From a virus (taxonomy: Duplodnaviria > Heunggongvirae > Uroviricota > Caudoviricetes): DNA of 64,000 nucleotides. The stretch lies in IMG/VR virus record IMGVR_UViG_3300035547_000249; one strand, 5' to 3'. Below are positions 2,676-25,053 of the stretch, one piece after another. A program made the position numbers and the translations under genes. The stretch's first letter is position 1. The number at the start of each line of letters is the position of its first letter. A model generated the notes under the pieces. The model saw nothing but the letters and a program-made list of their open reading frames with translations. It made no database searches and was not told the DNA's origin.

Positions 2676-3035
2676 ATGAGTAGTATGTATTCAATTAGAG
2701 AAATAAAAGAAAGTGCTATGGCTTATGCTAATGAGGATATAGATATTAAGGATACTTATATATATAATAGAAAAGTTTCTGTTTATAATTTTAAGCTTTT
2801 TTTGGATTCTTATATAATGACTAAAAGAAAACATGGGGCACATATCTTTCTCAGTGAAATTGGTTTAATGGTTGGAAAGACTTCTAATGCCGGCGAATTG
2901 ATTGATCATGCCATTTCATTTATATCACAAAGGATTAGTTGTGGAATGCCTTCGGTTGGAAACTATGATGATATAATAAAATGGTATCATGCATCTAAAG
3001 ATAGTACTGACAATAATATTAATAGTATATGGTGA
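2676..3035 (+). CDS. NS[IV]W-tail family, subfamily A (119 aa), ends …NNINSIW
   Basis: RBS AAGGAG. Shares an N-terminal S(I/P)REI(K/M)ESA(M/I)(A/S)YA…D(T/A)(Y/F)IYN…YDIG(I/V)LL(S/G)Y core with neighbouring genes. C-terminal N-S-I-W followed by TGA. Confidence 0.6.
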   Translation: MSSMYSIREIKESAMAYANEDIDIKDTYIYNRKVSVYNFKLFLDSYIMTKRKHGAHIFLSEIGLMVGKTSNAGELIDHAISFISQRISCGMPSVGNYDDIIKWYHASKDSTDNNINSIW

Positions 3036-3039
3036 TAAT

Positions 3040-3411
3040 ATGAGTTATCCAATTAGAGAAATAATGGAAAGTGCTATATCTTATGCTCATAGAGATATTA
3101 GAATAAGAGACACTTTTATATATAATAATGCTGTTACTTTTGCTAATCTTAAGATCTTTATTGATAATTATATAAGGGTTAGGAATGAAATAAGTAATAA
3201 GAAAGCTGAATTTTATGATATTGGTATTTTGCTAGGATATATTAGTAATGGTGAATTTATGCTTGGATCTGTTGTTTCATACTTATTAAAGAAACGTTCG
3301 AATGGGCTTATAATAAACGGAGAGCCAGAAGATACAAAAAAGGGTTTCTGTTTCTTGCGCAAGCTTACTTCTTCTTCAAGAAACCGTACAAAATTAAAAA
3401 GTATATGGTGA
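3040..3411 (+). CDS. NS[IV]W-tail family, subfamily A paralogue, ends …KLKSIW
   Basis: Start chosen at ATG 3040 (MSYPIREIMESAISYAH…), which parallels the previous gene's N-terminus. The tracked ORF from 2989 is the same frame extended upstream. Confidence 0.6.
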   Translation: MSYPIREIMESAISYAHRDIRIRDTFIYNNAVTFANLKIFIDNYIRVRNEISNKKAEFYDIGILLGYISNGEFMLGSVVSYLLKKRSNGLIINGEPEDTKKGFCFLRKLTSSSRNRTKLKSIW

Positions 3412-3415
3412 TAAT

Positions 3416-3820
3416 ATGGGAACATATAGCGGTATTATAGAAAGCAGTTGGTCAGGCATAAGAGGTTTTAAGGATGGCAAAAGATATGGCAGCAGACTTG
3501 TCCATATCGGTGAGACTTTTATATATAAAAAAGAAGTAACCAGACATGAGTTTAGAAGTTTCATGAATGGTTATGTTAATGCAAGATATAGAAATGAAGA
3601 TAACCGAGCCTCGTTTAATGATATAGGTGTTCTATTATCATATACTACTAATGGAAAAGCCTTGATTGAAGACATCATAATTTATGCAAAAATTTCATTT
3701 TGGATGAATGAAAAAGTGAGTGGTAATTATGGTGATATCAGGGCTGGCTTTAATATGGCGTCTAATAATATTAAAGAATATAAGGCTGAAGAAATAAACA
3801 AATTTAATAGTATATGGTGA
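3416..3820 (+). CDS. NS[IV]W-tail family, subfamily A paralogue, ends …KFNSIW
   Basis: Conserved F(I/L)Y…F…Y…(F/Y)(N/Y)DIGVLLSYTTNG core and C-terminal NSIW. Confidence 0.6.
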   Translation: MGTYSGIIESSWSGIRGFKDGKRYGSRLVHIGETFIYKKEVTRHEFRSFMNGYVNARYRNEDNRASFNDIGVLLSYTTNGKALIEDIIIYAKISFWMNEKVSGNYGDIRAGFNMASNNIKEYKAEEINKFNSIW

Positions 3821-3824
3821 TATT

Positions 3825-4211
3825 ATGAATTGCATATGGACAACAGGTAAGGCAGCTAACAATGGAAGAAATTATGCTTTAGGCAAGATTAGCTTAAAAG
3901 AAACCTATTTATTTAATAATACTGTCTCCACTAATTGTACTAGAATATTTATCAATAACTATGTATTTTACAGCAGCCACAAGAAAAAAGTATCATATTA
4001 TGATATAGGAATTCTTATTTCATATACCAAGAACAATCTAGAATTTGTTAACAGTGTTTATGTATATTTGAATAATAAATATACTAGAACTCCTAATCCT
4101 GTTATTCGTGATATGTTGATTGGTAAACTTGATGACTTCATAGATGGGTATAACAACAGCATTCAACATGGTTGTGGTTATAATACACCAGAAAGGGTGA
4201 ATAGTATATGA
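3825..4211 (+). CDS. NS[IV]W-tail family, subfamily A variant ending …RVNSI-stop (terminal Trp lost)
   Basis: Same core (YYDIGILISYTKNN) but the 3' end reads AATAGTATATGATAA instead of AATAGTATATGGTGA. It could equally be annotated as a decaying copy. Confidence 0.45.
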   Translation: MNCIWTTGKAANNGRNYALGKISLKETYLFNNTVSTNCTRIFINNYVFYSSHKKKVSYYDIGILISYTKNNLEFVNSVYVYLNNKYTRTPNPVIRDMLIGKLDDFIDGYNNSIQHGCGYNTPERVNSI

Positions 4212-4430
4212 TAAATTCAATGACGTCAGAGAAATGGTTTTGGATAATGGACTATTGTAAAAGAAAACATATTTCGCCCGCGAGAGAATGGGCATGGAGA
4301 GAAGCTGAAGAAGAATATGACAAAATAGTTAGAAAGAAAACTAATAAAAATAACAATATGAAAAGTGTGTGGTAAATACAAATGTTTTTATTTAATAGAC
4401 AATAAACACCAAAGAAAGGAAAAGAAAAAA

Positions 4431-4712
4431 ATGATTAAATGGGGGTTATACACAATAATTGTAGTATATAACATACTAGATGTGTGGCAGACTCACTTAT
4501 TGTTGATGTTAGGAGCAAAAGAATTAAACCCAATATTCAATTTCTTGGGTCAATATTTTGGTATTATTCCGTCTATTATATATGTTAAGGTAATTTTGTT
4601 AGGGTTTTTAGGTGTATTGCTCTACAACTATAAGACAGTAAAATATATCAAAGAGATCGATAAAGATATAATGTCAATGAAAAAAGACTTATTTGAAATG
4701 GAAAAACTATAA
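4431..4712 (+). CDS. small integral membrane protein (about 3 TM segments)
   Basis: Hydrophobic segments; start taken at ATG 4431 after AAGGAAAAG. Confidence 0.5.
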   Translation: MIKWGLYTIIVVYNILDVWQTHLLLMLGAKELNPIFNFLGQYFGIIPSIIYVKVILLGFLGVLLYNYKTVKYIKEIDKDIMSMKKDLFEMEKL

Positions 4713-4730
4713 AAAGATTAGGAGGTATAT

Positions 4731-5198
4731 ATGGGCTTTATTATAATATTAATAATTATTAGTGCAGTTGCTGGAATTATAACTGGACTTTATGATGAGA
4801 AAAAAGAAGATCCGTTTTGGAATGGGTTTGTTTGTTCTGGAGGGGCATGTATGGCGGTAAGTGTATTTATATGTCTTTTTATATTCACTATATCATATTT
4901 TAATTATGTAGGATTGATGCAGTGGAAAACAGAGATCGAAAGTGTTCAAAATCAGGCATTAAGCGTATATATTTCATATGCAAACACTCCTCTGGGTGCA
5001 GAAGGTAAAATTGTATCAGATCTTAATGATAAGAAATATGAAAATTTCCAAAACAACCTGTTCTCAATGATAAAAGATTTAAAGAACACTATAACAAAGT
5101 ATAATGATAGACTTATCTCCAAACGTGTTTACAAGAATACCTGGTTTTGGGGGGCTTTAATTGTATTGCCTGAAGATCCTGGTATTTATGAACTTTAA
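4731..5198 (+). CDS. membrane protein with two N-terminal TM segments
   Basis: RBS AGGAGG; hydrophobic N-terminus. Confidence 0.5.
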   Translation: MGFIIILIIISAVAGIITGLYDEKKEDPFWNGFVCSGGACMAVSVFICLFIFTISYFNYVGLMQWKTEIESVQNQALSVYISYANTPLGAEGKIVSDLNDKKYENFQNNLFSMIKDLKNTITKYNDRLISKRVYKNTWFWGALIVLPEDPGIYEL

Positions 5199-5351
5199 TA
5201 ATTATAAGTAAAAAGAATATTATGATATTGTTTATACTTATAATTTTAAACATAGTTGCATTTATTGCAGCGGCTGATGTACTATTTGCTATTGCATATT
5301 TAGGTTGGTTTCAATTTATAGGAATAAAAAAAATTATAAAGGAGTATTACC

Positions 5352-5810
5352 ATGAAAAAGTTATCAAGTATTAACCACAGCTTAATTTTGTCTTTAATCG
5401 TTGCCCTCATCGCATTCAGTGTAATTTGTTCCACTGCATGGGCTGAGACAATTGGAGAATCAAAATCATCAGGTCTTTTGCTTAAGGATACAATAAGTGT
5501 AAATGCTTTCGATGATCCTGATTATTCAAGTATAGTATGTTATACAACAAATGTTGAAATTGGGGGACCCAACCTTGAAAATCCCTCTAATTCGTCAATT
5601 TCATGCAGGATGATTGATCATTTTAAGGGAACTCCAAAATCAAGGAATGATGTGTTCTCTAAGGCAAAGAGTCCGTTCTTTAAGAAGTTAACAGTGGATA
5701 GGTTTTATGATAAGAAACGCAATGTTCTGGTATACCTGTCCTATACAAAAAAGATGTCAGGGAGTAACGCGTCACATTCAGTGAGTGTGGTTCCTCTAGG
5801 GATAAAATAA
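5352..5810 (+). CDS. secreted protein with an N-terminal signal peptide (…TAWA/ET)
   Basis: RBS AAGGAG; N-terminal basic-hydrophobic segment with an AxA-like cleavage motif. Confidence 0.5.
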   Translation: MKKLSSINHSLILSLIVALIAFSVICSTAWAETIGESKSSGLLLKDTISVNAFDDPDYSSIVCYTTNVEIGGPNLENPSNSSISCRMIDHFKGTPKSRNDVFSKAKSPFFKKLTVDRFYDKKRNVLVYLSYTKKMSGSNASHSVSVVPLGIK

Positions 5811-5826
5811 TAGGAGAAAATAGACA

Positions 5827-6156
5827 ATGATACAGTTTTTATTTGCAACATTAGGTGCGTGGGTAATTTGGGTAATATATATCGTTATCAATACCCTGGC
5901 ATGGGCAATTTGTATGGAACACTGGGATGATATGATTTCTAACCTCGCAGATGAGGAAGAAATTGATGTCGGTGAATTTATTTTCGCGGCGGGCTCTTGG
6001 TTATTCTTTCCGATTATACTGGTAGTGATATTGTTTTGCAAAATATCGGTATTTATTATAAACCAAATCGTTGAGCCAGGTTTCAAAAAGTTCCTTAAGG
6101 CATTGCTGAAAATTATCCCAAAGTTTGAATTCAAAGTTAAATTTAAAGGAGATTAA
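5827..6156 (+). CDS. small membrane protein
   Basis: Three hydrophobic segments. Confidence 0.45.
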   Translation: MIQFLFATLGAWVIWVIYIVINTLAWAICMEHWDDMISNLADEEEIDVGEFIFAAGSWLFFPIILVVILFCKISVFIINQIVEPGFKKFLKALLKIIPKFEFKVKFKGD

Positions 6157-6322
6157 TACGGATTTTGAATCTGAGGTCACCAAAATTGTTGAAGAATACG
6201 GAGCACCTGAAGATATCACAAACGAAATAGTTGAATTTCTTATTAATAGTGGGAACATATATACTATTATAGAAATCGCAAAAGAAATGGATATCTAAGT
6301 AAAATTAAAAAGGAGTATTACC

Positions 6323-7039
6323 ATGAAGATAGGAATTACAGAGCGTGGAGATGCAGCATTGGATATGTCGTGGGTCAATAAGATGGATACTGTTGATGGG
6401 GCGATATTGATTACGAAAGCGGTGTCATCCAAAGAGTTTCAGAATGCTGTAAAAGAATTCAAAGACAAGGTTATTATCCATGCTACTATTACTGGTTATG
6501 GCGGTACTCCTATTGAACCAAATGTTCCAAGTCACGAAGAAACGATGGATAGTTTGTATGAACTAGAATCTTTTATGCCTGAGGGGCATGTTGTTCTTCG
6601 TATTGATCCTGTTATACCAAACGATGCTGGTAGAACTTGGATACCTTATTTGATAAACAAGTTGCCTACCTCAATCAAAAGAGTAAGATTTAGCATAATT
6701 GACAATTATAAACATCTTTCTGCGCGGGGGCTGGAATTGCCTTGGAAGACGTTCCATGCCCCACCTCAATTAATATCTAATGTTGTCAATGACTTTATGA
6801 AATTTTCACATACACATAGTATAGAATGCTGTGGTGAAGATCACCCATTAATACCAATGGTGTGGAAAAAAGGATGTATATCAGATTGGGATTTGATACT
6901 TCTTGGATTAGATTTCATGCAAGTTCCAAAAGTCACATCAAATCAACGTAAATCGTGCAGATGTTTGTCTGTAAAAACAGAATTATTAACCAGAAGAAAA
7001 CAATGCCGCCATGGCTGTTTATATTGTTATTGGAGATAA
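6323..7039 (+). CDS. Cys-rich putative Fe-S protein (DUF1848-like C-terminal CxC…CxxGCxYCY cluster)
   Basis: RBS AAGGAG; C-terminus …CRCLSV…CRHGCLYCYWR. The family assignment is from memory only. Confidence 0.35.
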   Translation: MKIGITERGDAALDMSWVNKMDTVDGAILITKAVSSKEFQNAVKEFKDKVIIHATITGYGGTPIEPNVPSHEETMDSLYELESFMPEGHVVLRIDPVIPNDAGRTWIPYLINKLPTSIKRVRFSIIDNYKHLSARGLELPWKTFHAPPQLISNVVNDFMKFSHTHSIECCGEDHPLIPMVWKKGCISDWDLILLGLDFMQVPKVTSNQRKSCRCLSVKTELLTRRKQCRHGCLYCYWR

Positions 7040-7045
7040 TAAACT

Positions 7046-7501
7046 ATGGACACTAAAACTAATAAAAAATACAGACCGTCAACCATTGTAAACAGTAAAG
7101 AGTATATATCACTAGACTTAGATACCTTAAGGCATGTTGATAACGGAGGTATGTTTGCTATAGGTTTAATTAATATAGAAGGAACTATTATATATCGAAA
7201 AGATATGGACAGCTATAAAGCTGCTTATTTTATTATTGGGTATATAAACACATCAGCACACTACTGTATCAATCTAAATGATGAAGAGGAACTTCCGGGT
7301 CTTTATGAGGTTGGAACTATTCTATCTTATACTGCAAACTGCGACGATATTATGACAGAAGTAGCAAATACCTTAATAAACTATTATAGCAATCCATCAA
7401 GGCATAATTTGTTAGGAACAATGATTGATTTTCATAAAGGTGTCATAGATGGTAGCAATAAACATTTTAACAAAGAAATCGAACTAAACAGTATATGGTA
7501 A
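7046..7501 (+). CDS. NS[IV]W-tail family, subfamily A paralogue, ends …LNSIW
   Basis: Core …YRKDMDSYKAAYFIIGYINT…VGTILSYTANCDD…; C-terminal NSIW then TAA. Confidence 0.6.
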   Translation: MDTKTNKKYRPSTIVNSKEYISLDLDTLRHVDNGGMFAIGLINIEGTIIYRKDMDSYKAAYFIIGYINTSAHYCINLNDEEELPGLYEVGTILSYTANCDDIMTEVANTLINYYSNPSRHNLLGTMIDFHKGVIDGSNKHFNKEIELNSIW

Positions 7502-7520
7502 TAATTGGGAGAATAGGAGT

Positions 7521-7904
7521 ATGGGTAATATTACTAAATCAAAAATGTCAATGGTTACTACAAGCATGCTTGGGGACCTTGGGGCATATTTATATTACAA
7601 CAAAAGATTTCCTGGTGATACATCCAACGATATACAAAGAAAATGTTTTTGTTTAGATGATTTTATTAAATTACTTAATGGTTACATATTATGTAAAAAC
7701 ACAGACAGTAATTATACCAATAGTATAAGTTATATTGAGATTGGAGAGGTATTATCACATATAAAAAACGGAGAAGACTTAATTAACAGACTAGAAGGTT
7801 ATTTTATGGTAATTGGTGAGGTGCTAGCTATAAAAGGTTCTATTGATGATATTACTGTAGGATTTAATAATAAAAAACAAGACAGTATAAACAGTATATG
7901 GTGA
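7521..7904 (+). CDS. NS[IV]W-tail family, subfamily A paralogue, ends …INSIW
   Basis: RBS GGAG; core …IEIGEVLSHIKNGED…; the stop TGA lies in the conserved 3' context. Confidence 0.6.
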   Translation: MGNITKSKMSMVTTSMLGDLGAYLYYNKRFPGDTSNDIQRKCFCLDDFIKLLNGYILCKNTDSNYTNSISYIEIGEVLSHIKNGEDLINRLEGYFMVIGEVLAIKGSIDDITVGFNNKKQDSINSIW

Positions 7905-7909
7905 ACAAT

Positions 7910-8299
7910 ATGAAAGAAAAAACCAACACAAAACGTAGTTTGTGCCGCCGCACAATCGGCAAAAGTTCTTTTGATGAAGGTATGGATCTGTATAAAAAGT
8001 ATTTATATAATCAACCAGTCAAAAGACAAGAAGAACCAATACCATTTACAGAACTTTTATCTATAATTAATGGATTTAGAATCGCCAAAATATCAAATCT
8101 AAGGATGTCTGGACATGATGGCCCAGAATTGAAAACTCTGTGCGCTATAAATTACGAAGAAATAAAATTTATGATAAACATATTTCCGAACAGAGATGCT
8201 TTGTTTATTGAATTGGTTAAAAAAAGTGTTATCGATGTTAATGATGAATTAGAAATAATAGATAAACAAACACAACCCCCAATTAACAGTGTATGGTGA
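7910..8299 (+). CDS. NS[IV]W-tail protein (divergent body), ends …INSVW
   Basis: Start taken at ATG 7910 in the recurrent TGA-ACAATATG junction; C-terminal N-S-V-W. Confidence 0.55.
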   Translation: MKEKTNTKRSLCRRTIGKSSFDEGMDLYKKYLYNQPVKRQEEPIPFTELLSIINGFRIAKISNLRMSGHDGPELKTLCAINYEEIKFMINIFPNRDALFIELVKKSVIDVNDELEIIDKQTQPPINSVW

Positions 8300-8425
8300 A
8301 TAATATGGATAATATAAAAATAACTGTTCTATTATTAGCAATACCTATTGTCGGTGGGCTATTGGTTATCAAATATGTAATACCAATAGTAAACAGACTA
8401 TTTTTGCTGTTGTAAGGAATGTAAT

Positions 8426-8791
8426 ATGAGTATTGCTTCATACGTATTAAAAGGATGGGAATATCACAAAGGAATAGCTTCTGTTGAAAACTTAAACATT
8501 ACCAACAAAGAATTGAATGACCTTGAAATAGAAAGCTTTCTAACAGGTTATTTTGACAACGAAGATATAATTCCTGTTAAAACCAACAAACTACGTGAAT
8601 CAGTAAGAAACCTTTCTCCTGTAGTAGATGTTGTTGGAAACAAATTAACATTTATTAGTATGACACTAAAATTCATTATAACGAAAATAGTAAAAGGAAA
8701 ACTAACTTACGCAGAATATATGGAGCTGTATGAAATAATGAACAAAAGATATGAGGAGATAAACGATGGGACATTCAACAGTATATGGTAG
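8426..8791 (+). CDS. NS[IV]W-tail protein, ends …FNSIW (TAG stop)
   Basis: C-terminal NSIW; the body is divergent. Confidence 0.55.
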   Translation: MSIASYVLKGWEYHKGIASVENLNITNKELNDLEIESFLTGYFDNEDIIPVKTNKLRESVRNLSPVVDVVGNKLTFISMTLKFIITKIVKGKLTYAEYMELYEIMNKRYEEINDGTFNSIW

Positions 8792-8947
8792 TAACATATT
8801 TGTCAATTTTTGTCATATATATGCTGTATTTCTAATTGTAGTAATGATGATCAGAAATATTGTTGCTATATATCATGTAGTATATGAAAAAGTTCCTGAT
8901 TCAGAAGCATGTGTTGGTATATATGGAAGGGACTGTATAGGAATAAT

Positions 8948-9433
8948 ATGGATAGCCGCAGCGATAATATCATGATGACTGACAATTTTGATGAAAACAA
9001 ACAAATTTTCTTTAAAAAGGGTAAAGAGTTTTATAGAAGATATACTTTCAATAAAACGCTACCTAAATTTGGAGATATATCAATAAAAGATTTTACACAG
9101 TTTACTAAAGGATTTGAAAAGGCTAAAGCTAATAGTTTAAGAATGACTGGTCACAGTGAAAAGAGTGTTAGAATATTATCTATTTTAAATTTTGAAGAAA
9201 AAGGCATCATTATAAACTCTTTTTCAAATAAATTGTATCTTATAAGGTCTATTTCTTCAGAAGAAGGTAATCCTATAGAATTAGCAAAATTCATCAGAAA
9301 AAGCTTGGCAAAATCCATTAAAAAAGCACAATTAAAAAGAAATTACTACAGAGATAATACTTTACCTTATGAGGCAACTGAAGAAGGCCCTTATGAGATA
9401 ACCGAAGAAGGAACAATAAAAAGTATATGGTAA
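8948..9433 (+). CDS. NS[IV]W-tail protein, ends …IKSIW
   Basis: Start taken at ATG 8948 in the AATAATATGGATA context shared with other array members. The tracked ORF from 8909 is the same frame. Confidence 0.5.
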   Translation: MDSRSDNIMMTDNFDENKQIFFKKGKEFYRRYTFNKTLPKFGDISIKDFTQFTKGFEKAKANSLRMTGHSEKSVRILSILNFEEKGIIINSFSNKLYLIRSISSEEGNPIELAKFIRKSLAKSIKKAQLKRNYYRDNTLPYEATEEGPYEITEEGTIKSIW

Positions 9434-9460
9434 TATAACTATATACAAAAGGAGGTCACC

Positions 9461-9793: not shown

Positions 9794-9820
9794 AAACCAA
9801 CAATACAGGAGATAAGAAAA

Positions 9821-10507: not shown

Positions 10508-10519
10508 GGAGTAAAAAAA

Positions 10520-11038: not shown

Positions 11039-11046
11039 TAAATAAA

Positions 11047-11267: not shown

Positions 11268-11975
11268 ATGATTATGATAGTAATGATTGAAGTCACAAGA
11301 CAATGCAACCTTAAGTGTGATCATTGTTTAAGAGGTAAGCAAGAAAATATATCAATAAACCCTTATGATGTTGATACTCTATTCTCACAAATTAAATATA
11401 TTGAAGTACTGGTATTAACGGGAGGAGAGCCAGCACTGCACCCACATAGGATAAGAGCTATAACATCTATAGCTAGAAGGAAAGGGGTCACAATAAATAA
11501 CTTCTATATTTCTACGAATGGCACAATATCAACAAATGATTTTCTGAGTAGTATATTCGACTTGTGGATGTATTGTAGCGTTAATGATGAATCATGTCTA
11601 GAGATATCTAATGATGTGTTCCATGATATGAAAAAGATACATCAAAACATTGGCAGATTGTCTGTATTTTCATTTACCAGATTCAGGTATAGACCAAACG
11701 AATTTGAATTGTCAGATAAATTTCCGGGGTATGTTTATGATTATGAAGGTAAAAAGGATATCATAAGCGAAGGAAGAGGAAAAAAGTATAATGACTTCCA
11801 AATACCAGTACCAAACTTCAAGAGAACAATTGAAAGAGGGGAATCTTTTGATATATATTTAAACAGTAAGGGTAATATAGTTCTTGGGTGCGATTGGTCG
11901 TATGAAACACAGGATAAAAACTACTTATGTCATGTATCAGAGTTAAGGTCATACTTGGAAAGACAGAAAAAATGA
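11268..11975 (+). CDS. radical SAM enzyme (CNLKCDHC = CxxxCxxC)
   Basis: N-terminal …TRQCNLKCDHCLRG… and a glycine-rich …VLTGGEPALHP… SAM-binding motif. Confidence 0.7.
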   Translation: MIMIVMIEVTRQCNLKCDHCLRGKQENISINPYDVDTLFSQIKYIEVLVLTGGEPALHPHRIRAITSIARRKGVTINNFYISTNGTISTNDFLSSIFDLWMYCSVNDESCLEISNDVFHDMKKIHQNIGRLSVFSFTRFRYRPNEFELSDKFPGYVYDYEGKKDIISEGRGKKYNDFQIPVPNFKRTIERGESFDIYLNSKGNIVLGCDWSYETQDKNYLCHVSELRSYLERQKK

Positions 11976-12826
11976 AAACAAAATGCAATTGTTGTGACGG
12001 TATTTATAATTCTTTTGATGTACATTTTACCAGTGCTTGTGATAATAAATGTGCCCATTGTGTTGATCTTTGTTATAATGGTTTAGGAATTAATAAACCA
12101 GATATTAGTGCAATTATTAATACAATTATAGAAAATGAAGACGGTGTTGATGATGTTCTTTTTCTGGGTGGAGAACCTTGTTTATACTTAAATGAATTAA
12201 TATCGTGTATAATTCAAATAAAAAAGAAAACAAATCTTAAGGTGTATGTAACAACCTCTATACCAAAGACCTGTTATACTGATAGAAATAAATTCATCAG
12301 ATTAATAGAAGAGGTAGATGGAATCAATCTATCTGTACAACACTATCGAGAGGATATAGCAGATCAGATAAGAAGAACAGTTTCAAAGTATGACAGACAA
12401 AGTTTCTATTCAGGTCTTCCTCACAAAGAAAAGATCAGAATCAATATAAATATTGTTAAACCCTTTCTTTATACTAAAAGAGATATATCTAATTGTTTAA
12501 GGCATTATGATAAAATGGGGTTTAATTCAATAAAGCTATCAGAGATACAACACGGAAAGGATGTGTATGTATCATTCTGTGATATTTTTGGTATAAAAAT
12601 GGGGTCTGCTTATTCTAATGGGTGTCAATCTTATTTAGAGATGGATAAAATATTGCCCGGATTTGTGACACCGGTATTGCTTAAGAGATCTTGTTTTTTG
12701 TGTGAAGACAGTCTAAAAGCATCAATTTTCGATGGTATTAAAATGTTATCAAAATTAATTAATACACCAGATAACAAATATGGTGTAATATATGAAAATG
12801 GACAATTAATGAAAGGATGGATATAA
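11972..12826 (+). CDS. radical SAM enzyme (CDNKCAHC)
   Basis: Start taken at ATG 11972 overlapping the upstream stop (ATGA). Motifs …FTSACDNKCAHCVD… and …LFLGGEPCLY…. Confidence 0.65.
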   Translation: MKTKCNCCDGIYNSFDVHFTSACDNKCAHCVDLCYNGLGINKPDISAIINTIIENEDGVDDVLFLGGEPCLYLNELISCIIQIKKKTNLKVYVTTSIPKTCYTDRNKFIRLIEEVDGINLSVQHYREDIADQIRRTVSKYDRQSFYSGLPHKEKIRININIVKPFLYTKRDISNCLRHYDKMGFNSIKLSEIQHGKDVYVSFCDIFGIKMGSAYSNGCQSYLEMDKILPGFVTPVLLKRSCFLCEDSLKASIFDGIKMLSKLINTPDNKYGVIYENGQLMKGWI

Positions 12827-12869
12827 ATGTTTACTACACTTTTGAGAAAATTAAATAAGTTTTTGATTA

Positions 12870-13391
12870 TTGTATCAGGGCATTGCGGATCTGGGCATTG
12901 CTCATAAAAAAAAGAAACATCTCATGGATTTAAAAGATAAAATAGAAAAAATTATACAGATTGAAACGAATGTAATAAAGGAAGCCGCCAAACAAATAAT
13001 TAAGTATTGTGAAGAAGATGAAAGTATAAATGAATTTGTTGAAATAATTACTGACACCAAAGAATATGGTGAAAGTTTTTATGAATACAAACGAAGTTTC
13101 CTAAACATGGTTCTTTATAAACTTGGCTACCAGTTCCACATAAATGAATTCCATGATACTGATTCGCTTAGCAATCTAGCATCTTTTATAGGAAATTATT
13201 GTTATGATGACGCTTATTATGTTATATACGATGATGATTATTTCTATGGCGGAATAAAACATCCTGATAATGATGATGAAAAACAGCTTCAGGGGGTAGA
13301 ACATCTATTAAAATTAGCAGAAAAGAAAGCAAAAAGAGAAATAGAAAGATTTAACAAACTTAGAAATCTACTTAATAACGAGGAGAAGTAA
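12870..13391 (+). CDS. hypothetical acidic protein
   Basis: ORF only. The start is uncertain; the alternative ATG at 12924 is in frame. Confidence 0.4.
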   Translation: MYQGIADLGIAHKKKKHLMDLKDKIEKIIQIETNVIKEAAKQIIKYCEEDESINEFVEIITDTKEYGESFYEYKRSFLNMVLYKLGYQFHINEFHDTDSLSNLASFIGNYCYDDAYYVIYDDDYFYGGIKHPDNDDEKQLQGVEHLLKLAEKKAKREIERFNKLRNLLNNEEK

Positions 13392-13392
13392 A

Positions 13393-14355: not shown

Positions 14356-14951
14356 TAACTAATTTCGGGTGTCGTGCTAATTGTTGGTACTGTATTTGGA
14401 AAGGTCACAAACTGCAGAATATAAATGACCCAACTGATTGGGTAAAACTAAGAAAATTCCTTCATGATAATAAGAGCAAGGGCAAGGTTTCAGTATCAGG
14501 AGGAGGCGATTGTTTGTATAGATTTGATGAGTATTATGAATGGTGGGTAAATTTCTTTAAAATTACTCGCGAATTGAATATGTTGGTTGATATACATTCA
14601 AGGGAAAAATTTCTAAATAGTTTATTCTGGAAAGGCAGCGTCAACAGAAGTGTTTTTTCAAGCGATAGGTTGGAGGATGATGTAGATTATTTGCGTTATT
14701 TAAGAAAGTTTACGCAAGTTAGAATAACTCATTTAGTCACATTTGATACTACATTTAACATGATAGACGACTATTTAAAATTTCAGAAAGAAATAGATTG
14801 TCAGTTCACTATTAAAGAATTAATAGGGTATGATGATGGAGGTATGTATAAGAAAATAAGGGAAAAGTATCCAGATATATATCATTTGGATGAAGGTGAC
14901 TATAATATATACTATATGCCAAACAACACAGTAACCGACAGTTTTCTTTAA
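14322..14951 (+). CDS. small radical SAM enzyme (…GCRANCWYC…; …VSVSGGGDCLY…)
   Basis: Start taken at ATG 14322 after GAGGAGG. CxxxCxxC plus a glycine-rich SAM motif. Similar in size to QueE or activase-type radical SAM proteins. Confidence 0.6.
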   Translation: MLRTTCPNISVITNFGCRANCWYCIWKGHKLQNINDPTDWVKLRKFLHDNKSKGKVSVSGGGDCLYRFDEYYEWWVNFFKITRELNMLVDIHSREKFLNSLFWKGSVNRSVFSSDRLEDDVDYLRYLRKFTQVRITHLVTFDTTFNMIDDYLKFQKEIDCQFTIKELIGYDDGGMYKKIREKYPDIYHLDEGDYNIYYMPNNTVTDSFL

Positions 14952-17786: not shown

Positions 17787-17802
17787 AAGAAGAATATATT
17801 AA

Positions 17803-18483: not shown

Positions 18484-18518
18484 TAAATTTTTATAACGTA
18501 ACTAAAGGAGAATCAAAT

Positions 18519-19544: not shown

Positions 19545-19553
19545 GAGAATAAC

Positions 19554-19790
19554 ATGTTTAATTCAATAGGTATTAATTTCGGCAAGAAATCAGATGTAAA
19601 TAATATATTTAAAAACTTGGTGCCTTTAAATGAATGCCCAGCAGACCTAAATATGGTGAGTTTATGTCCTTATTGTGGAATAAAGAAAAACCGCCAATCA
19701 ACAATAGGTTTTAATAAAAACGGGTCTATATTGTATACAAACATAATTGATACATGTGGCTGTGGTTCTGAAGAAATGGTTAATTTTTAA
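19554..19790 (+). CDS. small zinc-finger protein
   Basis: RBS AGGAGAA; CPYCG…CGCG. Confidence 0.45.
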   Translation: MFNSIGINFGKKSDVNNIFKNLVPLNECPADLNMVSLCPYCGIKKNRQSTIGFNKNGSILYTNIIDTCGCGSEEMVNF

Positions 19791-19802
19791 GGGGTATTAA
19801 AT

Positions 19803-19988
19803 ATGGAATCAATTATTATAGAGGAAAAGAAAAATTTGGCAGAAGAATACATTAAGTATATTACTGAAAATGAAATAAAAGATAAAACATGGAACGACTT
19901 TTTTGAATATGCAAAGGTGCCAATGAAACATAGAACAGATTTTGCTATAGCATCTATACTTAAACAAGTAATGGAGAAAAATAAATGA
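19803..19988 (+). CDS. hypothetical protein
   Basis: ORF only. Confidence 0.4.
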   Translation: MESIIIEEKKNLAEEYIKYITENEIKDKTWNDFFEYAKVPMKHRTDFAIASILKQVMEKNK

Positions 19989-21139
19989 AATTAAGTGAAT
20001 TATATGCGTTGTTGCTGATGGTAATGTGTTTAGTAATTGCAGTGTATGCTATAATTTACTTAGTATATACTGCAATAATAGAAACCAAAGAAATAATCAA
20101 AAAAGATTGTGTGAGAGAAGATGAGAATGAGGGGGAGCTAATATCTATAATCAGAAATTTGGAAAAGACAAACGACATGAAAGTTGTTTACCTGTCTATT
20201 GTTGGTTCTAAGTTATTTGGAACTGATACTAAGGACTCGGATACTGATTACAGAGGAATTTTTATACCTTCGGTCAATTCATGTATAACAAAAACATGTG
20301 AAGACAATATAATATTTAAAACAAAGAATGACGACAGCAAAAACAACTCAGAAGATTTAGATGTACAATTATGGTCAATACAACATTTCCTTAGCTTGTT
20401 GTCTTTTGGAGATGTTAATGCTATAGATCTACTGTTTTCTTATACAAAAAAGGATGCTGTGGTTATAAATACTAAAGAATTCAATAAAATAATAGAAAAC
20501 AGAAATATTTTGTTTAATATGAAGGATGCTGCTAATTATCTTGGTTTCTCCAGACAACAAGCCATAAAATATGGTTTAAAAGGTAGAAGGTATGGCAAAA
20601 TAAAAGATGTACACAACTATGTTAAATCTCTCAATACGAAGAATGACTCCAAACTGAAAGATGTCATGTTTGATATAGTTAATAAATTCGGGGAATACCC
20701 ATTGTGTTTCATTAAAAAACAAAAAGACTATTTAAATAGAGAAAATACTTTTATAGAAATATGCGGAGTTATGCATCAGGATACAATATCTATAAAAGAA
20801 TTTCTTAATAGAATGGAACCAAAAAGAGATGGGTATGGAGAAAGAGCTAAATTAGCAGAAGTAAATGAGGGTGAAGACTATAAAGCTCTGTCACATTCTA
20901 TCAGATGTATTTATCAAGTAGAAATGTTATTTAAAACTGGAAAAATAATCTTTCCTTTACTTCAAGCAGATTATTTAAGAGACATAAAGCTTGGAAAAAT
21001 AAGTAAAGAAGATATTAACAAAGAATTCAACAGTAAAATAGACGTACTCACACACAAAGCGGCCAATATGGGCGATTATCCAGTTAATAAGGGTACAATC
21101 AATAATTTTATAATGATGTTTTACAAGGATATCACATAA
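19985..21139 (+). CDS. predicted nucleotidyltransferase (pol-beta superfamily; …YLSIVGSKLFGTDTKDSDTDYRGIFIPS…) with an N-terminal TM segment
   Basis: The GS-x-L-F/Y-G-x-D-x-D-S-D-x-D-x-R-G motif resembles the RNA-ligase-associated 'predicted nucleotidyltransferase' family; assignment from memory. Confidence 0.5.
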   Translation: MKLSELYALLLMVMCLVIAVYAIIYLVYTAIIETKEIIKKDCVREDENEGELISIIRNLEKTNDMKVVYLSIVGSKLFGTDTKDSDTDYRGIFIPSVNSCITKTCEDNIIFKTKNDDSKNNSEDLDVQLWSIQHFLSLLSFGDVNAIDLLFSYTKKDAVVINTKEFNKIIENRNILFNMKDAANYLGFSRQQAIKYGLKGRRYGKIKDVHNYVKSLNTKNDSKLKDVMFDIVNKFGEYPLCFIKKQKDYLNRENTFIEICGVMHQDTISIKEFLNRMEPKRDGYGERAKLAEVNEGEDYKALSHSIRCIYQVEMLFKTGKIIFPLLQADYLRDIKLGKISKEDINKEFNSKIDVLTHKAANMGDYPVNKGTINNFIMMFYKDIT

Positions 21140-21161
21140 CGTCGGTAGATATAGGTGATAA

Positions 21162-21482
21162 ATGCATGAATTAATTATGGGATTGATTTTTATATCAATA
21201 GCAATTATTGTGATATTGGTAGTTATATTAATAAAATACCTAAATATAGATTATATAGATTGTGCTAATCAAAGCAATAGTTTTATATATAAACACTCAA
21301 ACATAAATGATAATTATCAAGGTACATACATGTCCAAATCAAGCAGAAAAAGATCAAGAAGAAGAAGAAAAAAAGAGAAACTAGAAAAAATAAGCAAGGG
21401 TTTAGTTACAAATAATATGTTTAGAAAAATAGGCATATTAACGGAAATAGATGATAAGGAGAACACAGATGGAAAGAATTAA
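21162..21482 (+). CDS. membrane-anchored protein with a highly basic stretch (KSSRKRSRRRRKKEK)
   Basis: TM N-terminus; Arg/Lys run. Confidence 0.4.
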   Translation: MHELIMGLIFISIAIIVILVVILIKYLNIDYIDCANQSNSFIYKHSNINDNYQGTYMSKSSRKRSRRRRKKEKLEKISKGLVTNNMFRKIGILTEIDDKENTDGKN

Positions 21483-21723
21483 AATAAAAAATATCGCCGA
21501 AGTACTTTTTGAAAGTAATTATATAAGTGTGGATGAATACCATAAAATAAATGGGTTTATTAACAGAAATAGATTTAATGCTGTAATAGGGGCACTGTCT
21601 ATGATCGGAATTAAAATAAAACAGAGTAATTTTCCTATTTCAGGACCGGCCAAGCTAACAGCTGATTCCGAACTAATTGTTCCTGGAATAAACACTAAAA
21701 AATACATCAATAATATGAGATAG
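21469..21723 (+). CDS. hypothetical protein
   Basis: Start taken at ATG 21469 after AAGGAGAA. Confidence 0.4.
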   Translation: MERIKIKNIAEVLFESNYISVDEYHKINGFINRNRFNAVIGALSMIGIKIKQSNFPISGPAKLTADSELIVPGINTKKYINNMR

Positions 21724-21735
21724 GAGATAATTATT

Positions 21736-21915
21736 ATGAAAAGAAGAGCATTAACTCCAAACGTCAGTTCTAGTATACTTAAATCAGTAGAAAAAAGCAC
21801 TATGTGTAAATGTAACAGTTTAAACATAGAACTGTTTCCAATAAGCAGGTTTAGCAAACATTCTACCATTTGTCCTGTACATATAAGATATATGGAGAAA
21901 ATAAAGAAAGGTTAA
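21736..21915 (+). CDS. small Cys-containing protein (59 aa)
   Basis: Translated by eye: MKRRALTPNVSSSILKSVEKSTMCKCNSL…ICPVH…; RBS AGGAGA. Confidence 0.35.
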   Translation: MKRRALTPNVSSSILKSVEKSTMCKCNSLNIELFPISRFSKHSTICPVHIRYMEKIKKG

Positions 21916-21919
21916 TAGC

Positions 21920-22315
21920 ATGAATAAATACCTTAGAAGAATGGCAAAGACAGCTACAAAAATAAACGAAACAGAACAAGGCATAATAAAAGAAAATAAA
22001 GAAATAAAAAACGGTAGATTGCTTTACAATGATAGTTACGCTGAATCAGTTGTTATAAAAAGTCTGAACAAAGGTGTTTATGTAGTAATACATGGTAACA
22101 ACATTATTATTCCTGAAGATGATGAGCACCTGCAAAAGATTTGCAAAAACAGTAAAATAGCTACTATACACAACGTTAAATTCATACAAAAAAATAAAGT
22201 AGTGCATATAAAAAGTGTGATAGTCTCAGTGGACAACATGCTAATAGAATATGAATCTGATGATGTCATACATTTTTTCGAAGAACCAAAAACAAAATAT
22301 AACAGTATATGGTAA
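21920..22315 (+). CDS. NS[IV]W-tail protein, ends …KYNSIW
   Basis: C-terminal NSIW-TAA followed by GGAGAA and the next ATG. Confidence 0.55.
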   Translation: MNKYLRRMAKTATKINETEQGIIKENKEIKNGRLLYNDSYAESVVIKSLNKGVYVVIHGNNIIIPEDDEHLQKICKNSKIATIHNVKFIQKNKVVHIKSVIVSVDNMLIEYESDDVIHFFEEPKTKYNSIW

Positions 22316-22325
22316 GGAGAATTGT

Positions 22326-22544
22326 ATGTTGATAGCTAAAGCAGTAAAAAGTGATAGTGGTTTAAAGAAGAACAAAAAATACTATATTGGCGGAATGGTG
22401 CAAGGTAGTAGAAATCTTGTTTTAATGGATATGAAATTTAATATAGTTCCTGGAAATTTTTCAACAGAGCTGTTTGATTCTACACCTGAAGAAGTTTTAA
22501 AAGCCATAGAAGAAGGAAAGTATGAATTAAAACAAAAGGATTAA
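22326..22544 (+). CDS. hypothetical protein
   Basis: Start taken at ATG 22326 after AAGGAGAA. Confidence 0.45.
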   Translation: MLIAKAVKSDSGLKKNKKYYIGGMVQGSRNLVLMDMKFNIVPGNFSTELFDSTPEEVLKAIEEGKYELKQKD

Positions 22545-22548
22545 TATT

Positions 22549-23076
22549 ATGAATAAAGAGGAAGTTTATGTAACAAATGATTTTATTGTAGAAACTGGAA
22601 ACAAAAATGTGTATGGTTTATTTTTTAGGAGTCCGATACAAAAGGTAGTATATGAACACAATGATGTTTCAAACTATTCACCATCTTCTGCAACTAAGTG
22701 GTTGTTTTGGGCCAGAATATTAATAATTCCATACCTATTAAATTTTAAGTCTTTTAGTAATAAAAGAGATTTTATCCACAACAGAAGAAACGCAGCAGGT
22801 ATAATAGTAAATGAACTAGCTATGCCCATATATTTCAGAAGAAATATTAGATATATGGAGTGCTGCATAAATAATGAAAATATAAATATATCTAAAATAA
22901 CATCAAAAGGATACGGTAAATATAAAAGTGATGATATAGGTATGTGTCATAAAGAAATAACTAAATTACATTTCAGAAACGGAAAGACAAAAAAGATAGT
23001 AAGAAGAGAAACATATTATTTCACTTATACTCACATAATGAAAAAGGTGATAAACGACATTGATTACTATCAATAA
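22549..23076 (+). CDS. hypothetical protein
   Basis: ORF only. Confidence 0.45.
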   Translation: MNKEEVYVTNDFIVETGNKNVYGLFFRSPIQKVVYEHNDVSNYSPSSATKWLFWARILIIPYLLNFKSFSNKRDFIHNRRNAAGIIVNELAMPIYFRRNIRYMECCINNENINISKITSKGYGKYKSDDIGMCHKEITKLHFRNGKTKKIVRRETYYFTYTHIMKKVINDIDYYQ

Positions 23077-23181
23077 AAAAGAGATAAAAAAGTGGCTAAT
23101 TTCTGTAGTAGTTTTTGTATTATTGCAGTTAATTATGTTCTCTATAATTAAACCATAATAGTAAATGAGGAGATATATAAA

Positions 23182-24288
23182 GTGTACACACAAGAATTAA
23201 TAAAAGAAAAAGGCATAGAGGCTCTAAAGGATCTCGATATAATTATCAAAGAGTATAATGATAGGTTATGTCTAAAATACACACTAATGTCTCCTAAATT
23301 TAATCCTGTAGTTAAAGAATGTAGAGGATTAATATTATCCCTCCCTGATCTTAATATTATAAGCAGACCTTTCGATAAATTTTTTAATTATGGAGAAGAT
23401 CCGGACGGCCAGTCATTTTTTGATTGGGAAAATTCAATAGTGTTTGAGAAAAGAGATGGTACTCTTATACATGTCTATAATTATAAAAATAAATGGTTTG
23501 CAGGTACAACTGGCACAGCATACGCAGAAGGAAGTCCTCAGCTCACAATAGAAACTGGTAACAAAGAAACATTTTATAATTTGTTTTTAGAGGCATTGAA
23601 CCTTTCTGGTTGTGATGGTATAGACGATCTTATGGTAAATCAACCAAAAGAATTTACCTATCTTTTTGAATTAACAAGCCCAAAAAACAGAATTGTTACC
23701 AGATATGATAAGACAGAACTTAGATTATTAGCTATAAGGAATAACAGAACCGGTAAATACATTGATTATAACTTTATTGCTAAAAACGGATTCAGTGAAA
23801 TAACTGACTTTTGTCCGCTGGTAAAAATTTATGATCTAAAAAACCTTAAAGACATAGAAGAATTTATATCCTCTTTACAAAACACAGAAGAAGGTGTGGT
23901 TTGTTATGACTATATTAATCAAATGAGGATAAAAATTAAAAATCCAGAGTATGTAAAACTTCATTATTTAAGAGGTAATTCTTTAAATAGAAAGTCAGTC
24001 ATAAGCTTACTTGTTAGCGGAGAGATTGATGAGTACTTATCATATTTTCCTGAAGATATAGAAATATTGAATTCATATATCAACAGGTATAACAATATGG
24101 TTGATGAAATAATGAAAGTATATGAAAATTTAAAAGAAATAAAAAATCAAAAAGAGTTTGCAAGAGAAGCAATAAAATATAAGTTTCAAAGTGCATTATT
24201 TTCTCTCAGGAGAGGTAATACCTTGAAAGATTTTTTTAGCTACAACGAAATGAATTATGTAAGGAAACTTTTCTATGATCATTATTGA
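23182..24288 (+). CDS. rnlA: ATP-dependent RNA ligase, T4 RnlA (Rnl1)-like
   Basis: GTG start after GAGGAG. Motifs …KECRGLIL…RPFDKFFNYGEDP…EKRDGTLI… parallel T4 Rnl1 …ECRGIMFE…RPMEKFFNLNENP…TKEDGSLV…, including the KxDG adenylylation lysine. Confidence 0.7.
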   Translation: MYTQELIKEKGIEALKDLDIIIKEYNDRLCLKYTLMSPKFNPVVKECRGLILSLPDLNIISRPFDKFFNYGEDPDGQSFFDWENSIVFEKRDGTLIHVYNYKNKWFAGTTGTAYAEGSPQLTIETGNKETFYNLFLEALNLSGCDGIDDLMVNQPKEFTYLFELTSPKNRIVTRYDKTELRLLAIRNNRTGKYIDYNFIAKNGFSEITDFCPLVKIYDLKNLKDIEEFISSLQNTEEGVVCYDYINQMRIKIKNPEYVKLHYLRGNSLNRKSVISLLVSGEIDEYLSYFPEDIEILNSYINRYNNMVDEIMKVYENLKEIKNQKEFAREAIKYKFQSALFSLRRGNTLKDFFSYNEMNYVRKLFYDHY

Positions 24289-24562
24289 TTCGGGCGTAGA
24301 AGTAAAATTAAACGAAAAGGTCAAACTTCTTGACAGAGATCATAAATATAAACCTTCAACAGTCAATCCAATTATGAAAAGTAAATATGAATGTATAGGA
24401 CGAATAACTTCAATTAGCACAACTTCGTCATTCGAAAGTCAAACCGTTAATACTAATAGAGGTTTTGTGGTTTACTGGGAAAACGGTAAAAGTAATATTT
24501 ACTTTGAAGGAGACTTAGTTAAATACAGAGACACATTAGATTCTATAAACAGTATCTGGTAG
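24275..24562 (+). CDS. NS[IV]W-tail family, subfamily B (95 aa), ends …INSIW
   Basis: Shares a K(Y/F)EC(I/C/S)G…(I/V)…W(E/D)NG…N(I/T)Y core with the next two genes; the Ile is encoded ATC here, ATA elsewhere. Confidence 0.55.
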   Translation: MIIIDSGVEVKLNEKVKLLDRDHKYKPSTVNPIMKSKYECIGRITSISTTSSFESQTVNTNRGFVVYWENGKSNIYFEGDLVKYRDTLDSINSIW

Positions 24563-24572
24563 GAGAAAAGAT

Positions 24573-24806
24573 ATGACTATATTCAGAGTTAATGATAGAG
24601 TGTTTTTGGCTAGTAAAAATGAATTGGGCAGGTCTCCAAATAATCCAAAAATTGGATCTGAATATGAGTGTTGTGGGACAGTAGCAGAAATAGGAAGACG
24701 TTCGGCTTTACCAATAATAGTCGAATGGGACAATGGAACTCATAACACTTATGCAGCCAGACATTTGATTAAAAAAGAAGAAACCACTTTAAATAGTATA
24801 TGGTAA
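24573..24806 (+). CDS. NS[IV]W-tail family, subfamily B (77 aa), ends …LNSIW
   Basis: R-N-D-x-V…NPKIGSEYECCG…VEWDNG…HLIKK core. Confidence 0.55.
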   Translation: MTIFRVNDRVFLASKNELGRSPNNPKIGSEYECCGTVAEIGRRSALPIIVEWDNGTHNTYAARHLIKKEETTLNSIW

Positions 24807-24810
24807 TAAT

Positions 24811-25053
24811 ATGGATAAATTTAAACGTAATGATAAAGTACGTCTTGACTCTTTTTCAAACTTTGTTGCATCATCACGTAATCCAAAAATGGGCACTATT
24901 TATGAATGTTCTGGAAAAGTAATAAATATTATAGGTACGCCCTATAAAAAAATAATAGCTGTCGAATGGAAAAACGGAGCTATTAATAATTATATGTCCA
25001 ATCATTTGATAAAAGATGATGAATCGGAACCAAATATAAATAGTGTATGGTAA
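24811..25053 (+). CDS. NS[IV]W-tail family, subfamily B (80 aa), ends …INSVW
   Basis: R-N-D-x-V…NPKMGTIYECSG…VEWKNG…HLIKD core. Confidence 0.55.
   Translation: MDKFKRNDKVRLDSFSNFVASSRNPKMGTIYECSGKVINIIGTPYKKIIAVEWKNGAINNYMSNHLIKDDESEPNINSVW

Follow-up and report, generated by a model that had tools for sequence, protein, structure and literature searches.

Cells and viruses address cargo by means of short terminal tags on otherwise unrelated proteins, as in the peroxisomal targeting signal PTS1, KDEL, the encapsulin targeting peptides and the capsid targeting sequence (CTS) of phage T4. PTS1 (-SKL-COOH) and KDEL are eukaryotic C-terminal sorting tags of three to five residues, and in each case one receptor reads the tag together with the free carboxylate. 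The T4 CTS occupies the N-terminus, spans about 10 residues and is cleaved off by the prohead protease. The encapsulin consensus is rich in Gly, Ser and Leu, and encapsulin cargo genes adjoin the shell gene. Encapsulin targeting peptides lie at the C-terminus after a flexible linker and are read by an HK97-fold shell protein (PMC8346489, PMC10960027), and in T4-type phages the internal proteins are diverse small proteins that a common short terminal peptide addresses to one receptor (PMC3012670). Here we analyze a C-terminal tag, ending in N-S-[I/V]-W, that is carried by small proteins of a tailed phage represented by IMG/VR record IMGVR_UViG_3300035547_000249 (64,000 nucleotides; the whole of this stretch is hereafter called the window). 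The tag is real, strongly selected and so far undescribed, and belongs to a novel phage clade; no published description of it was found in the literature searched, nor of any C-terminal tag common to many small phage proteins.

A C-terminal pentapeptide on thirteen small proteins

The first-pass annotation of the window had recorded thirteen genes ending in S-[I/V]-W, and this number was borne out. Among stop-to-stop open reading frames (ORFs) of at least 40 aa, 13 on the + strand end S-[I/V]-W-stop, and these are all of the + strand ORFs that terminate in Trp (13/13); the ending is found in 0 of the 391 ORFs on the − strand. Given the amino acid composition of the window, 0.017 such ORFs would be expected by chance among 149 (binomial P ~8e-34). 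At the DNA level, the pattern AAHAGTRTHTGGTRR has 12 matches in the window compared with 0.03 in dinucleotide-preserving shuffles, and all of them are on the + strand, in frame and at ORF ends. About one gene in eight carries the tag (13 of ~98, or ~13%). A degenerate version of the ending was not found in any other predicted protein of the window, and the tag is therefore all-or-none. Two trivial explanations were considered and rejected. Spurious ORFs are inconsistent with the conserved orthologues, a confident AlphaFold model and the compact gene layout on the + strand, and an alternative genetic code with TGA as Trp is inconsistent with ORFs of up to 1,092 aa that are intact under translation table 11 with TGG as Trp.

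The window and four related contigs together provided 36 non-redundant tails, which define a motif of five residues, hydrophobic-[N/K]-S-[I/V]-W-COOH. Numbering back from the terminal residue as position 0, Trp and the Ser at position −2 are invariant (36 each), position −1 is Ile in 33 tails and Val in 3, and position −3 is Asn in 27, Lys in 8 and Arg in 1. Position −4 is occupied by Ile (19), Val (6), Leu (5), Met (3), Phe (2) or Tyr (1) and by nothing else, so that the earlier description of a conserved tetrapeptide, N-S-[I/V]-W, had the tail right and the unit one residue too short. Positions −5 to −9 are rich in N, E, D and T, and the linker is enriched in E, N and D. In AlphaFold models the predicted local distance difference test score (pLDDT) of the last 6-14 residues is 38-56, and the polar/acidic linker that precedes the motif is probably flexible.

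The genes form two arrays (Table 1). Array 1 had been read as nine consecutive tail genes at 2676-9433, but its tail genes fall into one block at 2676-4375 and another at 7046-9433. Between these lie seven genes without the tail (4365-7039), which include membrane proteins, a CreA-like secreted protein and a DUF1848 protein.

Selection on the peptide

Codons were counted in 44 tail-bearing ORFs, some strain duplicates included. Position −4 uses 13 different codons for I/V/L/M/F/Y. Asn is encoded by AAT (19) or AAC (14), Lys by AAA (10), the single Arg by AGA (1), Ser by AGT (39) or AGC (5), Ile by ATA (34), ATT (4) or ATC (2), Val by GTA (3) or GTG (1), and Trp by TGG (44). The stop follows directly after Trp in every counted tail, as TGA (19), TAA (19) or TAG (6), and all of the variation is synonymous or conservative. 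Conservation spans codon −4 through the stop, and the DNA flanking these 12-15 nt is unconserved. RNAalifold returned 0 shared pairs for 13 tail-centred segments of 62 nt, and Rfam had no match anywhere in the window. Within the window the tail element never occurs out of frame, on the − strand or outside coding DNA; a conserved non-coding copy of the 15-nt element, which had been set beforehand as the finding that would count against selection on the peptide, was looked for and none was found. Because distant homologues keep the tail, the changes are synonymous or conservative, and neither an RNA fold nor a non-coding copy was detected, the view that selection acts on the peptide tail and not on a DNA or RNA element is well supported by the sequence comparisons, in agreement with what the first-pass annotation had argued.

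The Ser codon is AGY in 44/44 tails and never TCN, while TCN makes up 64% of the Ser codons of the window. The tails are therefore of one ancestry, inherited or transplanted, and not convergent. Use of ATA is 85% in the tails vs 52% genome-wide and AGT is also over-used, an excess that could stem from recent common descent or from a minor extra constraint.

A frozen tail on fast-evolving proteins

An exhaustive search of 1.84 billion representative proteins with a profile hidden Markov model (HMM) of family A, the group that contains the first gene of array 1, returned 18 matches, comprising 2 spurious repeat proteins, 6 proteins of this phage and 10 new homologues (P0007-15 and P0018). The new homologues are 16-28% identical, and all of them end [IVLM]-[NK]-S-I-W. 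In the 23-sequence alignment of family A, the only invariant columns are M1 and S-I-W. Contigs L008, L009 and L010-L014 are syntenic with the window and have the same arrays, and the tail is retained in related contigs by families A, B, g9 and the g5 type (orthologues of g9 keep it in L008, L009 and L013). In the related contigs recovered the tag never varies, while its carriers change two to three times faster than the genes around them. Tail-less neighbours are 47-79% identical between the window and L008/L013 (CreA-like 78%, DUF1848 75%), against 23-41% for tail-protein bodies and their best matches. Such a frozen tag on fast carriers is a pattern typical of host-interaction or counter-defence proteins. 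Between two strains that are ~97-98% identical, g2 has 11 non-synonymous to 5 synonymous changes and g10 has 16 to 7. In the tails of 10 genes, five codons each, these strains differ only at the Trp/stop of g4, with ~3.6 changes expected at the regional rate and 1 observed; this shortage of changes is suggestive only.

The g4 gene has a decayed tail, NSI-stop. In a ~98%-identical strain the codon at the TGA site is TGG and the protein ends NSIW (P0001), so that the terminal Trp was lost recently by a single G>A change (TGG>TGA). In the window the gene reads NSI-TGA-TAA (4200-4214), and read-through of the UGA by tRNA-Trp would give exactly NSIW-stop. A second altered copy occurs in a g5-like ORF of a relative (L008 4986-5177), which ends NSVW-E-TAA; one TAA>GAA change before a second TAA explains the Glu.

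Megablast of the array against 50,697 phage genomes found no match, and a DNA pattern of tail plus junction had one chance match in IMG/VR, inside a KAP-NTPase-like gene. Spaced DNA patterns of two tails matched 8 times in IMG/VR, 42 times in metagenome_contigs and 4 times in GTDB genomes, and none of these was a tail array; the 50 matches that were inspected, from IMG/VR and the metagenomes, were mostly out of frame or had no stop after them, and ~20 of them were copies of one ~405-nt internal repeat. The window itself was not retrieved in the pattern searches, and those collections therefore lack this phage clade. Searches of IMG/VR for related loci with the RNA ligase and with DUF1848 found no relatives, word-indexed protein searches with families A and C returned proteins of this phage only, and a profile built on the C-terminal 42 residues of every tail gave five candidates, none of which passed.

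Carrier families and predicted folds

At least two protein families had been proposed for the carriers. After removal of the tails, BLAST gave five clusters, A (g1, g2, g3, g4, g6, g7), B (g8, g10), g9, C (g12-14) and g11, in addition to the 55-aa Trp-rich type of g5. This last type was joined to family A solely through a natural fusion, P0015 (L009 3636-4124), in which a g5-like N-terminus precedes a family-A body with a single NSIW tail. Profile comparison of the tail-less proteins by hhalign gave E 0.009 for A-B and E 0.026 for A-g9, with all remaining family pairs >0.1. A, B and g9 may on this basis represent one superfamily; C, g11 and g5 lie outside it as judged by the same comparison.

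The AlphaFold2 model of g3 (family A) is a helical bundle with a pLDDT of 85, falling to ~50 in the last 14 residues, and the bundle is an orphan all-alpha fold. Family C is modeled as a small beta barrel (pLDDT 68; tail 38) whose predicted structure resembles the SH3/Tudor-like Tudor, PWWP, KOW and MIB-HERC2 domains. A family-C homologue in the T4-like Proteus phage PM2 (ASZ76541, 107 aa), which is a homologue of g13, has the barrel but ends EIINKSF without a tail, so that the tail is an addition made in this phage clade. The carriers range from 55 to 175 aa, have no signal peptides, and share nothing across families at their N-termini. Pfam had no match for any carrier, and PHROGs matched family C only, to families without known function. 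From these models and comparisons, the tail appears to be carried by at least three structurally unrelated kinds of small, fast-evolving phage protein.

Comparison with known tagging systems

The T4 CTS (IPI, IPII, IPIII, Alt and the polymorphic T-even IP loci) is the closest known system in logic and biology. In both systems small, diverse, fast-evolving proteins share a terminal peptide, and the two sets are alike in the size of the proteins, in their grouping into arrays and in how members come and go. The CTS hallmark of unrelated, clustered payloads with a common short terminal peptide is present here in five or six families, two predicted folds and two arrays. Unlike the CTS, the tag is C-terminal, five residues long and ends in Trp, with no sign of cleavage and an early-looking position, and the carriers have no N-terminal tag of ~10 residues ending at a prohead-protease site (L/I-x-E). 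Because the N-terminal position and the protease cleavage are both missing, the tail system is not a member of the T4 CTS.

Encapsulin cargo peptides resemble the tail in their place at the extreme C-terminus, in their flexible linker and in being common to unrelated proteins. They follow another consensus, and Pfam and PHROGs scans of ~60 window proteins, many of them without matches, recognised no HK97-type gene. PTS1 and KDEL follow the same logic of an invariant short terminal tag on unrelated proteins, but they are eukaryotic and have neither homology nor shared sequence with it.

The class I PDZ-ligand pattern, [S/T]-x-hydrophobic-COOH, is found in 36/36 of the non-redundant tails. The tail fits this pattern through its Ser at −2 and through a terminal residue that is hydrophobic or aromatic and bears a free carboxylate; outer-membrane proteins whose aromatic C-termini DegS recognises are a comparable case. 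In contrast to these systems, no PDZ-domain partner had a Pfam match among the window proteins scanned and the carriers lack signal peptides, while bacterial PDZ proteins are mostly periplasmic. The tail of the single-stranded DNA-binding protein SSB (DDDIPF-COOH) and the acidic Phe-terminated tails of T7 gp2.5 and gp4 also combine an acidic or polar flexible stretch with a hydrophobic or aromatic docking end. There one tail serves many partners, whereas here many proteins share one tail, and the carriers are not OB-fold proteins. Type IV secretion effectors (Dot/Icm E-block) have a Glu-rich segment followed by a hydrophobic C-terminus and use one coupling protein, but their signals are loose and compositional over 20-35 residues; the present tag is an invariant pentapeptide and has no secretion system with it. 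The tails contain neither Q nor an L-x-L-F pattern and so differ from the sliding-clamp-binding consensus (QL[SD]LF; T4 SLDFLF type). T4 PeSL-type cassettes, which mediate gene shuffling, have a conserved non-coding promoter and stem-loop between genes, and here only the final four or five codons and the stop are conserved.

A probable docking or addressing tag

As a short linear motif at the C-terminus the tail is genuine; it is borne on a linker and has been kept on, or transplanted onto, unrelated domains. We consider it likely that it serves as a many-to-one docking or addressing tag. The earlier suggestion of a recognition signal is reasonable; the receptor and its role are inferred, and no receptor was found. 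In this model the side chain and free carboxylate of the terminal Trp would be recognised together with the Ser and the Ile in the pocket of a single conserved receptor, and the tag would gather many different payload domains at one place. With a single reader for many ligands, the tag would be held constant while the payloads diverge.

Regarding the destination, the tail could tentatively be seen as an address to a phage-built assembly (prohead, virion or other), a C-terminal counterpart of the T4 CTS. This packaging version is preferred because it has a close precedent and because small, fast-evolving proteins that are needed as DNA enters would suit such delivery. Docking to a conserved host or phage machine without packaging is conceivable too, and we rate it only slightly lower. 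If the reader were a capsid or another phage-built structure, the tag could provide a minimal tool to load foreign proteins into phage particles, and with five residues it is in any case a direct experimental handle on its reader.

Several observations weigh against a docking tag or against its packaging version. No C-terminal-peptide-binding domain (PDZ, TPR or other) was detected by Pfam among the ~60 window proteins scanned, and the Pfam/PHROGs scans of the same set, which left many ORFs without matches, recognised no capsid, scaffold or portal gene. The arrays, one behind promoters and the other among RNA-repair genes, look early and not late. The pI of the carriers ranges from 5.1 to 9.7 and is not uniformly basic, whereas T4 internal proteins are uniformly basic. 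The two broken natural tails described above (g4 and the g5-like ORF of L008) show that the tag is dispensable for individual paralogues. Finally, AGT and ATA exceed their genome-wide usage, so that an added nucleotide-level constraint is possible.

Alternative explanations

Among the alternatives to a docking tag, a signal for timed destruction fares best, although we regard it as unlikely. The tail would be a C-terminal degron for a host or phage AAA+ protease or adaptor, so that early host-takeover or anti-defence proteins are removed at a set time. The anatomy is the same, with the extreme C-terminus, a free carboxylate, a non-polar end and a low-confidence, probably flexible tail, and the gene position is early-looking; the proteases ClpXP, FtsH and Tsp are known to recognise ssrA-type tails and non-polar C-termini. 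The sequence N/K-S-I/V-W is nevertheless unlike ssrA/LAA or MuA-type ClpX motifs (LAA-like or RRKKAI-like), and the strictly conserved polar N/K-S argues for a specific pocket and not for general non-polarity. A protease or adaptor gene was not recognised in the window proteins scanned, and we know of no phage that tags a whole set of genes for degradation.

A second possibility, suggested in the first-pass annotation, is that the tail is a handle for co-encoded enzymes. Either the COOH-NH2 ligases, ATP-grasp enzymes and amidotransferases would modify or ligate the terminal Trp or its carboxylate, or the radical-SAM enzymes would modify it. The genes themselves were confirmed, with four radical-SAM genes after the first array and ATP-grasp and amidoligase genes further downstream (Table 1). 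The amide-ligation set within the window is unusually large, the radical-SAM genes and DUF1848 lie near array 1, and one relative copy encodes an extra Glu (NSVW-E). R2K-type phage ATP-grasp enzymes are also predicted protein modifiers (PMC4431377). The details fit such a substrate poorly, and we find this explanation improbable. Between the arrays and the ligase genes there are 10-30 kb or more (>30 kb for the ATP-grasp genes), the tails end in Trp, and known RimK/TTL-type enzymes extend acidic C-termini; no positive evidence was obtained for the tails as RimK or amidoligase substrates, and the single TAA>GAA change before the second TAA accounts for NSVW-E.

The radical-SAM branch of this idea, in which the tail would be modified in the manner of ribosomally synthesized and post-translationally modified peptides (RiPPs) or of scaffold peptides, proved unsupported. 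The four radical-SAM proteins (215-320 aa) had Pfam matches to Radical_SAM and Fer4_12 only, sub-threshold in 2/4, and none to a SPASM or PqqD-type (RiPP recognition element, RRE) domain. The peptide-maturase models of NCBIfam covered residues ~5-100 only, the generic N-terminal core, with 20-37 bits against cut-offs of 170-650. The third radical-SAM protein is of the RlmN/Cfr RNA-methyltransferase type (TIGR00048, E 2.6e-21, under the curated cut-off) and has a C-terminal CGQL motif. The carriers are not short leader-core peptides; they appear as folded proteins of 55-175 aa and several folds, with family A modeled at pLDDT 85 and family C as a beta barrel.

A bolder form of the same idea, which we regard as very improbable, would make the tail proteins themselves protein modifiers, their Trp carboxylate activated by COOH-NH2 ligases or ATP-grasp enzymes and joined to amines of host or phage. 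The C26 and GGACT-type hydrolases would then serve as removers, in a ubiquitin- or Pup-like scheme with diverse tags and one ligation handle. In its favour are only the exceptional ligase set and the exceptional C-terminal motif in one genome and the strictly terminal position.

It is more doubtful still that the conserved unit is a nucleotide element of ~15 nt, acting as a Shine-Dalgarno or coupling sequence, an RNA-processing site or a microhomology for shuffling, with the peptide as by-product. At five junctions TGGTGA does yield a Shine-Dalgarno-like GGTGA 4-5 nt ahead of the next ATG, Ser is always AGY and ATA is in excess, and the 9-mer ATAGTATAT is common to four tails and to the 18-nt motif ATAGTATATTATATTATA repeated upstream of array 1, a sharing that is probably chance in AT-rich DNA. 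However, 8/13 of the complete window tails end in TAA or TAG, and after several of these comes either a separate AGGAG-type Shine-Dalgarno sequence or a spacer of 27-126 nt. Conservation is bounded by codon −4 and the stop, variation is third-position or conservative, and −4 is kept only as an amino acid class. The terminal codon has the form URR and is never TGG in 44 tails, so that the stop itself is selected. There is also the absence in the window of a consensus RNA fold, an Rfam match or any out-of-frame, non-coding or − strand copy, and 12-15 nt are too short for gene-conversion tracts.

The least probable of all is a cis effect of the nascent peptide, in which the last five residues would pause termination and promote re-initiation on the next gene; the motif has the length of the chain nearest the peptidyl-transferase centre and several junctions are tight (4-5 nt from stop to start), but all three stop codons occur, long spacers or block ends follow g5, g8, g9, g10 and g14, and no termination-arrest motif known to us resembles N-S-I-W.

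Genomic setting

Table 1. Tail genes and other features of the window. Tails are given as the last residues and the stop codon.
Feature	Coordinates	Strand	Type	Tail and stop	Remarks
g1	2676..3035	+	family A (all-alpha), 119 aa	NNINSIW-TGA	identical public protein P0002
g2	3040..3411	+	family A, 123 aa	TKLKSIW-TGA	start aligned with N-terminus of g1, 4 nt past g1 stop
g3	3416..3820	+	family A, 134 aa	NKFNSIW-TGA	
g4	3825..4211	+	family A, 128 aa	ERVNSI-TGA-TAA	decayed tail
g5	4208..4375	+	Trp-rich, 55 aa	NNMKSVW-TAA	
g6	7046..7501	+	family A, 151 aa	IELNSIW-TAA	strain variant: TGA
g7	7521..7904	+	family A, 127 aa	DSINSIW-TGA	
g8	7910..8299	+	family B, 129 aa	PPINSVW-TGA	
g9	8426..8791	+	own family, 121 aa	GTFNSIW-TAG	
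g10	8948..9433	+	family B, 161 aa	GTIKSIW-TAA	174 aa with start 8909
g11	21920..22315	+	singleton, 131 aa	TKYNSIW-TAA	
g12	24275..24562	+	family C, 95 aa	DSINSIW-TAG	Ile codon ATC; start overlaps end of RNA ligase gene
g13	24573..24806	+	family C, 77 aa	TTLNSIW-TAA	
g14	24811..25053	+	family C, 80 aa	PNINSVW-TAA	
22-bp repeats	1-216		~10 copies		several assemblies break here
Non-coding region	1156-2675				
23-bp repeats	1752-2213		20 copies of TAGTATTAATCTATACAGTATCA		within non-coding region
18-nt motif	1425, 1475, 2300, 2341		four copies of ATAGTATATTATATTATA		upstream of array 1
Promoters	1450-1479, 1599-1627		sigma-70-like, 11/12 consensus		upstream of array 1
Two small ORFs	5811-6302		one membrane protein		missing from strain variant
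DUF1848 gene	6323-7039		Cys-rich C-terminus		
Radical-SAM genes	11268-14951		four genes		
Third radical-SAM gene	13393-14355		RlmN/Cfr type		
RNA-repair/quality-control set	19985-32164, 37669-38421, 59947-61347				
ATP-grasp and amidoligase genes	35620-57054				
Ligation set	30051-30500, 35620-39425, 48805-57484, 62509-63261				
ATP-grasp genes	55921-57054, 62509-63261				
RNA polymerase beta-like gene	42689-45967		1,092 aa		
Clamp and sigma region	57462-59960				
Clamp-loader-like gene	58175-59161				
Sigma-factor-like gene	59139-59960				

The window has a G+C content of ~30%, and its clearly coding ORFs are all on the + strand. A non-coding stretch of 1.5 kb, with short repeats and two sigma-70-like promoters (Table 1), separates array 1 from the contig's second gene; it may be an origin or a promoter region, or else a terminal region. 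Several assemblies are broken at the start of the window and once more ~66 kb in, at tRNA genes, which begin ~2.7 kb beyond the window end (L066). Genes of this phage are found on contigs up to 118 kb. RNA-repair genes (RlaP, Rnl1-type ligase, HD-kinase and phosphoesterase) surround array 2, and position and tight packing suggest that the arrays are expressed early or middle.

Within array 1, the DUF1848 protein is 75% identical in L013, where it also lies within the array. Two small ORFs next to it are missing from a ~97-98%-identical strain variant (L004, L006). The arrays of three relatives contain a conserved tail-less ORF of ~300 aa (L008 3215-4090, L009 2718-3632, L013 72-989) that has no homologue in the window.

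The ligation set comprises three COOH-NH2 ligases (phiEco32-type), two C26 glutamine amidotransferases (GATases), two GAT-II, two ATP-grasp proteins, one of them RimK/R2K-like, one gamma-glutamyl cyclotransferase (GGACT) and one GNAT. Such a set suggests that the phage encodes a pathway for peptide tagging or for a metabolite. The RNA-repair and quality-control set includes RlaP, an Rnl1-type RNA ligase, an HD + kinase protein and a metallophosphoesterase, as well as a Ro60/TROVE protein with a vWA domain and two CCA-adding/poly(A)-polymerase-like nucleotidyltransferases; Rfam detected no Y RNA in the window.

The window belongs to a large phage whose lineage appears undescribed from its sequence. 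A 1,092-aa protein has weak matches only, to RNA polymerase beta (Rpb2 domain 6, phrog_3295), and tblastn with it against 50,697 phage genomes found no match. Further downstream, a 232-aa ORF without matches precedes a clamp-loader-like and a sigma-factor-like gene, and sits where T4 has its sliding clamp gp45. This arrangement hints at T4-like clamp-coupled late transcription, and given the clamp loader, a phage clamp probably exists.

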